Source of the DNA: an uncultured Clostridiaceae bacterium
GTDB lineage: Bacteria > Bacillota > Clostridia > Saccharofermentanales > UBA5734
NCBI GenBank assembly: GCA_942493365.1
Contig: OW818697.1
Span: 418,634 to 482,633, forward strand
Direction: 5' to 3'
DNA length: 64,000 nt
Part shown: piece after piece, positions 19,753 to 21,289 of the stretch
Layout of the letters: the number at the start of each line of letters is the position of its first letter
Numbering within the stretch: position 1 is the first letter of the stretch
Notes under the pieces: model-generated
Told to the model about the DNA's origin: nothing
Database searches by the model: none
What the model saw: only the letters and a program-made list of their open reading frames with translations
Made by a program: the position numbers and the translations under genes

Positions 19753-20811
19753 TCACACAAACAATTGTTCAATGTCACTGAGCAATAGCATAATGACACC
19801 CAAAATGGTGGCAATCAGCATGATGGGCAACGCCAGTTTCATCTCACGGTTGACGCCGGACGGCGAAGTATAAGTCGAACTGCCGGTAAAATTCATCGCC
19901 AAATAACCAGATAGCGAAGGAATCAGCAAAAGATAAGCCATTGCTTTCAACAAGGGCAGCGTTGAAGAAAAACCAACCAACCAACCGTTGAGCAGGGCGA
20001 TTCCGATCGCCCACAACACCCCCATCAGGGCACCTTTGAAGGAAAAAGCACGGCCGGGGATCAAAGGCAGCAGGATCGGCACAAGGATGCACCCGATAAC
20101 AATTGTCCCGGCCAACGCGTAAAGGTCGATCATGCCATAGTGACCTAAACCCAGTGTATTGAAAATGAACATCACACCGAGAATAATCGCAGCGGGCTTA
20201 AAGGTGAAAACAAACTCGGCTGGAGTCAGAATCAGGCGATCCATCGTATTGAAACGAACCTGTCGCATAGCCGAGTTCGCGATCTGTCCAGCAGCCAGAA
20301 ATGCCGGCAAATCCTCAGCTCGAACCGGTCCATAGACAACCTGAAAGCCTGTTGCGGCTGCAACTTTATGGGCTGCGATGCCGGTCGCGCCTAATTGCGG
20401 GACAATCAGCACGCGGTGACTGACTCGATTGTCGAGCCGAGTCGCTTTGATGCGCCTGACCAGCTCATCCGTGCCGAATGTACCCTTGCCCGCTGCGCAC
20501 CACACATTGATACCCTTCGTATCGAGCACCAGGATCCAGGCATTGACATGGTCGAGTTCGCTGCGCAGGTGATCGAAAGTCAACTTATAATTTGCGGTCA
20601 CCAAAACCGGTGAATCGACATCCGGTTGCCCTACCCCATACAGGCCAGGCTTGACGGTATAATCCATACGTCCCATGGTCCAGCGAGCTTTCCAGCCGCC
20701 CCAGATATCAGAAGCCTTCAGACGAGTCGAAACAATCGTCACCTCGCGTGCTGGTTCTGATTTCAATTTGCCGGTTAGTTTTGGCCTGTTGTTCAAGTTA
20801 TTCATTTTCAC
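19753..20811 (-). CDS. hgcA: HgcA, corrinoid-dependent mercury methyltransferase
   Basis: The cap-helix motif 'GINVWCAAGKGTFGT' was verified at the nucleotide level (NVWCAAGK at 20485-20508). 'VTANYKL..D' and 'PQLGA' are present, and the C-terminal half has multiple TM helices. The start is a GTG at 20811 or an ATG at 20805. Confidence 0.9.
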   Translation of the reverse strand: MKMNNLNNRPKLTGKLKSEPAREVTIVSTRLKASDIWGGWKARWTMGRMDYTVKPGLYGVGQPDVDSPVLVTANYKLTFDHLRSELDHVNAWILVLDTKGINVWCAAGKGTFGTDELVRRIKATRLDNRVSHRVLIVPQLGATGIAAHKVAAATGFQVVYGPVRAEDLPAFLAAGQIANSAMRQVRFNTMDRLILTPAEFVFTFKPAAIILGVMFIFNTLGLGHYGMIDLYALAGTIVIGCILVPILLPLIPGRAFSFKGALMGVLWAIGIALLNGWLVGFSSTLPLLKAMAYLLLIPSLSGYLAMNFTGSSTYTSPSGVNREMKLALPIMLIATILGVIMLLLSDIEQLFV

Positions 20812-21250
20812 ACCTGACCTTCGCAGCTGCCTGCGCCAGAATTTGCAAGCTTTCGATAACCTGTTGTCGTTTTTCGACTGGGATGGCCGTCAGAATCAGG
20901 CCATAGTATTGGTGCATGTCATGATCAATTTTATCAAACAATTGTTGGCCAGTTTTGGTCAGGGAGATCAGTACGTTGCGACGGCTTGCCGGGTCCGGTT
21001 GCCTGCTGACGAGTGCGTGCAACACAAGTTGATCGACCGTCCTGCTGACAGTACTCTTATCCAGACCCAGCAGTTCTGCCAAGTTGTTTAGCGAAACTGA
21101 TTTGGCCGATCCAATTTCAACCAGTGCATGGCACTGGCCCAGCGTGACGCCACAGCACGACTTTGCGCTGTCGTCGACAAGTCCGAATTCACGCTCAATT
21201 AAGCTTATACATTGGCGAATCTCTTGTATTTGCAGCGTCAAATCAATCAC
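20798..21250 (-). CDS. MarR-family winged-helix regulator with an N-terminal Cys cluster
   Basis: 'LAELLGLDKSTVSRTVDQLV...V.R..DP.SRR...ISLT..G' is the MarR wHTH pattern, and a 'SCCGVTLGQCH' cysteine cluster sits at the N-terminus. The stop lies inside the hgcA start region. The start codon is uncertain (GTG at 21250 or TTG at 21241). Confidence 0.78.
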   Translation of the reverse strand: MIDLTLQIQEIRQCISLIEREFGLVDDSAKSCCGVTLGQCHALVEIGSAKSVSLNNLAELLGLDKSTVSRTVDQLVLHALVSRQPDPASRRNVLISLTKTGQQLFDKIDHDMHQYYGLILTAIPVEKRQQVIESLQILAQAAAKVRCENE

Positions 21251-21259
21251 CTCTCATAG

Positions 21260-21289
21260 ATTGTATCATGCAACTGTTGCGCATTGCAA
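21260..21289 (-). promoter_or_regulatory. SigA-like promoter for marR-hgcAB with an embedded palindrome
   Basis: On the minus strand, TTGCAA (21289-21284) is followed by an 18-nt spacer and TACAAT (21265-21260). The spacer contains GCAAC-T-GTTGC (21270-21280). Confidence 0.5.

Follow-up and report, generated by a model that had tools for sequence, protein, structure and literature searches.

A predicted MarR_ars-type metalloid sensor in front of hgcAB in an uncultured Clostridiaceae bacterium

We analyzed 64,000 nucleotides (nt) of DNA from an uncultured Clostridiaceae bacterium (contig OW818697.1, positions 418,634 to 482,633; "the window" refers to this whole stretch). Three closely packed genes on its minus strand encode a small MarR-type regulator and the mercury-methylating proteins HgcA and HgcB. 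We favor, with moderate confidence, the view that the regulator is a MarR_ars-type repressor that senses metalloids by its cysteine thiolates and controls regulator-hgcA-hgcB from one promoter. By analogy to a characterized member of MarR_ars, arsenic-like metalloids, and not mercury, are predicted to switch on hgcAB in this bacterium.

How hgcAB is controlled and what HgcAB is for are questions of mercury biogeochemistry. If we are right, then a second family of arsenic sensors, unrelated to the ArsR-like one, is wired to hgcAB, which would give independent support to the proposed link between arsenic and mercury methylation. The prediction is open to testing: it specifies a 32-nt operator, four cysteine residues, and As(III) or Sb(III) as the inducers. 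It also implies that, where arsenic or antimony is a co-contaminant, methylmercury production by Firmicutes may be modulated.

The regulator and its cysteines

The regulator matches Pfam's MarR family (PF01047; E = 6e-12, 45.7 bits versus a cutoff of 24.6) as well as PF12802 (43.7 bits versus a cutoff of 27). A sequence search of the PDB found 118 MarR-family chains at E <= 1e-3 (best 4.9e-16), and both this search and a structural search with Foldseek returned MarR-family structures exclusively. The best Foldseek matches were MarR (3bpx), HpaR bound to DNA (7el3), and SlyA (1lj9), each with a probability of 1.00; the solved MarR structures that Foldseek aligned are 16-27% identical to the regulator. 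In MarR proteins, helices α1, α5, and α6 form the dimerization domain, α3-α4 form the helix-turn-helix (HTH), and a β-hairpin forms the wing. The AlphaFold2 model of the regulator (mean pLDDT, a per-residue confidence score, of 88.9) has these elements in the canonical order (helices at 2-18, 34-46, 51-58, 62-74, 96-119, and 122-146; strands at 78-83 and 86-94). The first-pass annotation had called the protein a MarR-type winged HTH, and the Pfam match and the predicted fold agree. NCBIfam has no model that is specific for this group (BilQ, the top match, gave 53.8 bits versus a cutoff of 125). We rejected membership in the ArsR/SmtB family: there was no match to PF01022, the one related match, PF12840 (HTH_20), reached 19.2 bits where its cutoff is 27, and no ArsR model was among the NCBIfam matches.

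In the model, the vicinal pair Cys29-Cys30 lies in the flexible loop between α1 and α2, Cys37-His38 are in the first turn of α2, and Cys144 ends α6. A search of 5.8 billion proteins yielded 128 relatives. Across 35 aligned relatives (motif sCCGvTxxQCHAL), Cys29, Gln36, Cys37, and His38 are invariant; in a second alignment, Cys29 and Cys30 are both invariant. Across about 230 relatives, C29-C30-x6-C37-H38 is near-invariant, and the CC..QCH signature is present in 111 of 120 matches from the first search and 100 of 103 from the second. A cysteine within the final 15 residues is found in 77 of the 120 first-search matches. Among 79 relatives from Bacillota genomes, 75 have at least one cysteine there and 62 have at least two.

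The arrangement is reminiscent of As(III) sensors with another fold. In C. glutamicum ArsR1 (C15/C16/C55) and A. ferrooxidans ArsR (C95/C96/C102), a vicinal cysteine pair and a third cysteine form an S3 site for As(III), and this site is placed differently in each lineage, by convergent evolution. The regulator has a vicinal pair and a third cysteine too, although the fold families are unrelated. We also considered an iron-sulfur cluster and rejected it, because vicinal cysteines ligate clusters poorly and because the genomic neighbors point specifically to arsenic.

The closest characterized protein is the Achromobacter sp. As-55 regulator AdMarR_ars, the founder of the MarR_ars subfamily, which was defined in 2021 (Yu et al., bioRxiv 10.1101/2021.08.12.456183). 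AdMarR_ars represses its own gene and arsV, and experiments showed that As(III) and Sb(III) release it from DNA; its function requires Cys36, Cys37, and Cys157 (bioRxiv 10.1101/2021.08.12.456183). Relatives of AdMarR_ars adjoin arsV, arsN, or arsP in many phyla. (The text of the preprint names neither arsM nor hgcAB as a target, contains no sequence for an operator, and leaves the QCH cysteine out of the conserved ones.)

We compared the regulator to AdMarR_ars via proxies. The mutagenic primers for AdMarR_ars encode the peptide RDRDRICCYDVSV, and a hybrid query with this peptide found three proteins (P0221-P0223) that contain it (with CCH for CCY in P0222), followed by TQCHAL, along with LDKST.SR and a C-terminal CC. 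The regulator (P0001 in the protein database) is 39% identical to P0221 over 117 amino acids (BLASTP, E = 6e-15), the CC and QCH motifs of the two proteins line up, and a profile of the regulator's family matches P0223 with 99.6% probability (hhalign). Given this identity and profile match to peptide-bearing proxies, the regulator is, by homology, a MarR_ars protein. The first-pass annotation had proposed that the cysteine cluster could bind a thiophilic metal or metalloid or sense redox; the homology to MarR_ars points to a metalloid.

The regulator resembles AdMarR_ars in its MarR fold, in its vicinal cysteine pair before α2 followed by VS/VT-x2-QCH, and in its cysteine near the C terminus. 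It is also first in its operon, with a presumably autoregulated promoter, and its family is linked to ars genes. But the target would be hgcAB instead of arsV, arsN, or arsP. Also, in the window's branch, the QCH cysteine is near-invariant and the C-terminal cysteine varies, whereas Yu et al. name cysteines 36, 37, and 157. Finally, we can define a two-box operator, whereas the text of Yu et al. gives none, and that text lists no association with arsM, the family's main cargo in Bacillota.

Promoter, operator, and the regulator-hgcA junction

A promoter scan returned TTGCAA-18-TACAAT at 21289-21260 on the minus strand, with a TG-extended -10. This is the promoter that the first-pass annotation had predicted, and it is conserved across related loci.

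Almost all of the related regulators have a 32-nt element upstream, with the consensus AGTTGCAtaaTACAAC-t-GTTGtAtgaTACAAT. The element comprises two adjacent 15-bp palindromes (GTTGYA-N3-TRCAAC); in the family consensus, the -35 (TTGCA) is covered by the first box and the extended -10 (TGnTACAAT) by the second. The distance from the start of the element to the regulator's start codon is usually 49-52 nt. We built a matrix (38.6 bits) for this element from 71 related loci, with the window excluded. The window's operator scores 34.4 bits and is the single site in 64 kb: the other match in the window (23.6 bits) is the same operator read on the opposite strand, and no score above 7.8 bits came from 30 shuffles. 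Across 801 kb of related loci, there were 80 sites with at least 18 bits, and 74 of them are at a regulator's promoter. Near-identical operators (32.3 and 42.0 bits) are present in the nearest relatives, L162 and L163. In two loci, hgcAB is upstream of the regulator, and there the operator precedes hgcA.

The first-pass annotation had proposed that a palindrome within the promoter's spacer, GCAACAGTTGC (GCAAC-T-GTTGC, 21280-21270), is an autoregulatory operator. An operator is indeed predicted in the promoter, but this palindrome is the junction between the inner half-sites of the two boxes, which are more likely the binding units. The window contains 96 palindromes of this 5-1-5 form, compared to 62 in shuffles, so such a palindrome by itself is not beyond chance. 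As a binding unit, it would leave just ~5 bp between the half-site centers, which is too little for a MarR dimer, and a sister MarR family (described below) has a single 15-bp box, GTTGTATTATACAAC, with no such junction. Within each box, the half-site centers are ~11 bp apart, which likely fits one MarR dimer per 15-bp box; the box centers are 16 bp apart.

The regulator gene overlaps hgcA by 8 nt (junction ATGAATAA), the spacing from the Shine-Dalgarno sequence of hgcA (AGGTG) to its ATG is 5 nt, and just 14 nt separate the stop codon of hgcA from the start of hgcB. On the minus strand from the promoter to hgcB, a scan found no terminator-like site, and an Rfam search of the whole window found no RNA family. 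Among the closest relatives of the regulator (51-66% identity), P0002, P0003, and P0004 are followed by hgcA-hgcB at +4, -4, and +85 nt, and none has a second operator. (For P0006, the next gene begins at +14 nt and is truncated by the end of the contig.) These observations are consistent with the earlier prediction of a single transcription unit.

In the mechanism that we propose, regulator dimers would bind the two adjacent 15-bp palindromes, over the -35 and the extended -10 (promoter 21291-21260), and would block RNA polymerase, so that the single regulator-hgcA-hgcB transcript is off. Cys29 and Cys30, together with Cys37 or Cys144, would hold a soft metalloid in its trivalent state, which is most likely As(III) or Sb(III). 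Its binding would shift the winged HTH domains, which would release the DNA and induce hgcAB. Translation of the regulator and of hgcA would be coupled via the overlap. (We infer the DNA binding, the repression, the identity of the ligand, and the co-transcription from sequence comparisons.) The first-pass annotation had expected a control logic different from that of the ArsR-like regulators of hgcAB. Because the regulator belongs to MarR_ars, which releases DNA upon binding As(III) or Sb(III), the logic is probably the same, namely metalloid-induced derepression, which has been demonstrated for the ArsR-like regulator of hgcAB. Aside from this point, the earlier interpretation was largely right.

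Might the regulator control only itself, or something else, with hgcAB transcribed from an internal constitutive promoter? We consider this highly improbable. It is true that hgcAB has been described as constitutive at a low level in several strains, and that in many relatives the gap between the regulator and hgcA is about 10-130 nt. But in the window the genes overlap, and the junctions in the closest relatives are similarly tight (+4 and -4 nt); there is no second operator and no predicted terminator; and where the order is hgcAB-regulator, the operator is directly upstream of hgcA. Furthermore, the regulator and HgcA co-diverge: their pairwise identities are correlated (r = 0.81; Mantel test, 0/2000), which indicates a long association, although this correlation may reflect species phylogeny alone.

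A few other loci bear on what the operator controls. In two loci (L031:5003-5034 and L072:1027-1058), the operator lies upstream of an SDR-family gene; this gene comes first in the operon and is followed by the regulator and, in L072, by hgcAB. (The window has an SDR paralog at 10043-10771, which is distant, with 28-29% identity, and lacks the operator.) In L062, a second operator (11767-11798 on the minus strand, 32.2 bits) is upstream of an opposite-strand gene for a protein similar to CoA-disulfide reductases and rhodaneses, so the local regulon may reach past the regulator's own operon in some genomes. The only metagenomic hgcA-linked member of the regulator's family (L081:438-905, 42% identity) has altered half-sites in the upstream 110 nt (ATGTA-N3-TACAT, twice), which suggests that the operator and the recognition helix co-vary. 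Lastly, in L161 (positions 1-40), what appears by eye to be an Illumina adapter truncates the first operator box; this is an assembly artefact, and the operator is intact in the sister contig L162.

Family neighborhoods and candidate inducers

With a 10-sequence alignment, we scanned one genome per species and found relatives of the regulator in 419 genomes. We analyzed the best 80 loci by clustering the neighboring open reading frames (ORFs) and naming the clusters with NCBIfam. The gene directly downstream of the regulator is the arsenite methyltransferase arsM in 47 of the 80 loci (NF008823; 312 bits versus a cutoff of 263) and hgcA-hgcB in 20. Most of the remaining loci have ArsN1, ArsN2, an ArsP-like permease, or ArsD downstream. 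Genes for ArsR, Acr3, ArsA, ArsD, ArsC-like proteins, and CoA-disulfide-reductase-like proteins recur around these loci, and ars genes lie within 6 kb in 10 of the 19 loci that are linked to hgcAB. Across Bacillota, then, hgcAB takes the slot otherwise held by arsM, and none of the 80 loci has both arsM and an intact hgcA. The first-pass annotation had asked whether the cysteines are conserved in orthologs beside hgcAB: CC..QCH and a C-terminal cysteine are kept in all 19 of the hgcAB-linked orthologs from genomes, and the cap-helix motif NVWCAAGK is kept in 18 of the 19 linked HgcA proteins.

If hgcAB and arsM are interchangeable cargo, then HgcAB could be a physiological part of the arsenic/antimony response in anaerobic Bacillota, and mercury methylation would be a side reaction. 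It might, for example, provide a corrinoid-dependent route in place of the S-adenosylmethionine-dependent ArsM under anoxia. We view this idea as speculative and rather doubtful. In a separate observation, a Bacteroidota metagenome-assembled genome (L034:1791-2401) has fragments that match HgcA residues 18-119, fused to HgcB residues 41-88, between the regulator and an intact arsM. These fragments look like a decayed remnant of hgcAB, possibly a cargo replacement in progress.

In a neighbor-joining tree, which is crude and lacks support values, the hgcA-linked regulators fall into at least five groups that are interleaved with arsM-linked ones. This bears on whether the hgcAB-linked sensors have been retuned to Hg(II), so that hgcAB would be induced by its known substrate. 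The regulated genes do methylate mercury, thiolate triads bind Hg(II) very tightly (as in MerR), and the content of C-terminal cysteines is altered in the window's clade. But the interleaved hgcAB- and arsM-linked regulators have the same cysteine motif and operator, with no branch-specific signature, half of the hgcAB-linked loci are in ars islands, and we saw no mer genes. Also, mercury is not known to induce hgcAB in the model strains tested. We consider induction by Hg(II) to be quite unlikely.

The neighborhoods also argue against a thiol-redox or electrophile sensor of the OhrR/MarR type, in which oxidation of Cys29/Cys30/Cys37, or a disulfide between them, would release the DNA and tie hgcAB to oxidative or thiol stress. 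Many MarR proteins do use cysteines, and like the proposed sensor, those of this type combine the MarR fold with cysteine-dependent release of operator DNA; OhrR, AbfR, and oxidized MarR were among the Foldseek matches, and CoA-disulfide-reductase-like and thioredoxin-like genes recur near the family's loci. However, such sensors respond to peroxide or copper-driven oxidation via one or two cysteines, without CC..QCH or an ars context, whereas the neighborhood signal here is overwhelmingly arsenic-specific (arsM, acr3, arsA, arsD, and arsN). Peroxide signals are rare for strict anaerobes, and As(III) and Sb(III) are the signals to which the subfamily's characterized protein responds. A redox sensor is therefore very unlikely.

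In the same architecture, the inducer could instead be an organoarsenical, for example methylarsenite (MAs(III)) held by a two-thiolate site, but this is unlikely as well. The family adjoins arsM, arsN1, arsN2, and the ArsP-like permease, and the C-terminal cysteine is dispensable in the nearest relatives, which would leave a smaller site. Yu et al. emphasize resistance to arsenic-containing antibiotics and its regulation. On the other hand, a response of AdMarR_ars to As(III) and Sb(III) has been demonstrated, the three conserved thiols (Cys29, Cys30, and Cys37) suit an S3 site, and where arsM is regulated, one would logically expect induction by the substrate of its product, As(III).

Several points weigh against our preferred reading, that a repressor responding to As(III) or Sb(III) controls hgcAB. 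First, for this protein and this organism, the support comes from sequence comparison and analogy, and homology to AdMarR_ars itself (QVQ28260.1) was assessed through proxies that have the primer-derived peptide. Second, the regulator has a single C-terminal cysteine, and its nearest relatives (P0002, P0003, P0004, and P0006) have none, so this cysteine is weakly constrained in the window's clade. The third ligand may therefore differ from that of AdMarR_ars, and selectivity could have drifted. Third, thiolate triads have at least as good an affinity for Hg(II) as for As(III). Fourth, although ars clusters are typical at the level of the family, we found no ars gene in the 64-kb window (the sole weak match is the SDR paralog), so the arsenic link rests on the family and not on this locus. 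The limits given above for the tree and for the distance correlation count on the same side.

Other regulators of hgcAB, gene calls, and flanking genes

A known regulator of hgcAB is the ArsR-like protein ArsR2 of Pseudodesulfovibrio mercurii ND132, which is co-transcribed with hgcAB and responds to arsenic and to S-adenosylhomocysteine (SAH) (Gionfriddo et al., bioRxiv 10.1101/2022.10.17.512643, who cite Goni-Urriza et al. 2020). Like the window's regulator, ArsR2 is a small, cysteine-rich winged HTH protein from a family of arsenic sensors, and its gene is directly upstream of hgcAB. But ArsR2 belongs to ArsR/SmtB (PF01022) and has four cysteines, while our regulator belongs to MarR (PF01047) and has CC..C(H) with or without a C-terminal cysteine. 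In ND132, the co-transcription and the response of hgcAB to arsenic are known, while in the window they are predicted from sequence. And unlike the ligand that we propose, ArsR2's ligands include SAH.

The first-pass annotation implied that a MarR gene beside hgcA would be new. In fact, MarR-family genes upstream of hgcA were mentioned in 2023 for Dethiobacter alkaliphilus and Geobacter daltonii, in one sentence at the level of COGs (PMC10349881). As in the window, these genes adjoin hgcA in bacterial methylators, and Dethiobacter also belongs to the Bacillota. That mention, which we could compare by description only, includes no cysteine motif, operator, or arsenic link. Our literature search found no published link between MarR_ars and hgcAB. 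The operator appears to be undescribed so far, as do the wiring of MarR_ars to hgcAB and the alternation of arsM and hgcAB behind a single sensor and operator.

Cysteine-rich MarR regulators are also the commonest upstream neighbors in metagenomic hgcA loci related to the window (24 of 59), while ArsR-like genes were found in three loci of this set; the literature's emphasis on ArsR-like regulators may therefore be incomplete. In 23 of the 59 loci (within L082-L137), the gene directly upstream of hgcA encodes the sister MarR family (for example, L101:2426-2887, with hgcA from about 3001). This family matches the window's family with 99.6% probability (hhalign) at 23% identity. Its cysteine pattern is RCC(C)RDEAFCEGVTFHQF, C112, and a C-terminal CC, without QCH. 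The same 15-bp box is found once in its promoter, TTGACA-N9-TAGTTGTATTATACAAC, which runs right up to the ATG; the transcript may thus lack a leader. An uncharacterized "putative regulator" has been reported upstream of hgcAB in 112 genomes, and the sister family may be this putative regulator of McDaniel et al. 2020.

As for the gene calls (Table 1), both HgcA (454.9 bits versus a cutoff of 275) and HgcB (126.1 bits versus a cutoff of 99) match NCBIfam equivalogs. The cap-helix motif NVWCAAGK (pattern N(V/I)WCA(A/G)GK) is found in the window's HgcA, and homologs align from residue 2 or 3 of the protein that starts at the ATG. The listed ORF for the regulator (21250..20798, minus strand) begins at an in-frame GTG. 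We favor the TTG at 21241 instead, because it sits 8 nt after the Shine-Dalgarno sequence GAGAGG, because homologs have this same spacing, and because the 147-amino-acid product matches P0001 exactly; the GTG at 21250 directly abuts the Shine-Dalgarno sequence. Since transcription is predicted to start ~7 nt after the -10, the regulator's leader would be very short.

Table 1. Features of the regulator-hgcA-hgcB locus, in window coordinates
Feature	Position	Strand	Details or basis
MarR_ars-type regulator gene	20798..21241	-	147 amino acids, TTG start; Pfam MarR match
hgcA, corrinoid protein	19753..20805	-	350 amino acids from ATG; NCBIfam HgcA_corrinoid, 1.4e-136
hgcB, 2x[4Fe-4S] ferredoxin with C-terminal CC	19469..19738	-	NCBIfam HgcB_ferredoxin, 3.6e-37
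Composite promoter/operator (predicted), TATTGCAATGCGCAACAGTTGCATGATACAAT	21260..21291	-	Promoter scan and position weight matrix
-35 TTGCAA; TG-extended -10 with TACAAT (predicted)	21289-21284; 21268-21260	-	Promoter scan
Operator box 1 (predicted), ATTGCA-ATG-CGCAAC	21276..21290	-	Over the -35; 71-locus matrix; consensus GTTGCA-N3-TACAAC
Operator box 2 (predicted), GTTGCA-TGA-TACAAT	21260..21274	-	Over the extended -10; 71-locus matrix
Shine-Dalgarno sequence of the regulator, GAGAGGTGAT	21246..21255	-	8 nt before TTG 21241
Predicted metalloid-binding motif, S28-C29-C30-G-V-T-L-G-Q-C37-H38	21128..21160	-	α1-α2 loop and first turn of α2
Codon of C144, C-terminal cysteine	20810..20812	-	3 residues from the end; position of AdMarR_ars C157
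Regulator-hgcA junction	20798..20815	-	Sequence; Shine-Dalgarno AGGTG 20815-20811, hgcA ATG 20805-20803, regulator TAA 20800-20798

Downstream of hgcB, on the same strand, is a gene for a cyclic-di-GMP signaling protein (16289-19381), with 88 nt in between and no predicted terminator. The protein has the architecture 7TM-GAF-GGDEF-EAL, and in a related locus (L163:8183-11359) there is a PAS-GGDEF-HD protein, so the adjacency to hgcB may be conserved, or it may reflect read-through. On the other side, the regulator shares a 119-bp intergenic region (21242-21360) with a divergent gene for glucose-6-phosphate dehydrogenase (zwf; 21361-22887, plus strand). A promoter-like site for this gene (TTGTTA-17-TATGAT with a TG, 21310-21338 on the plus strand) is 19 nt from the operator, so zwf might also be affected by binding of the regulator.

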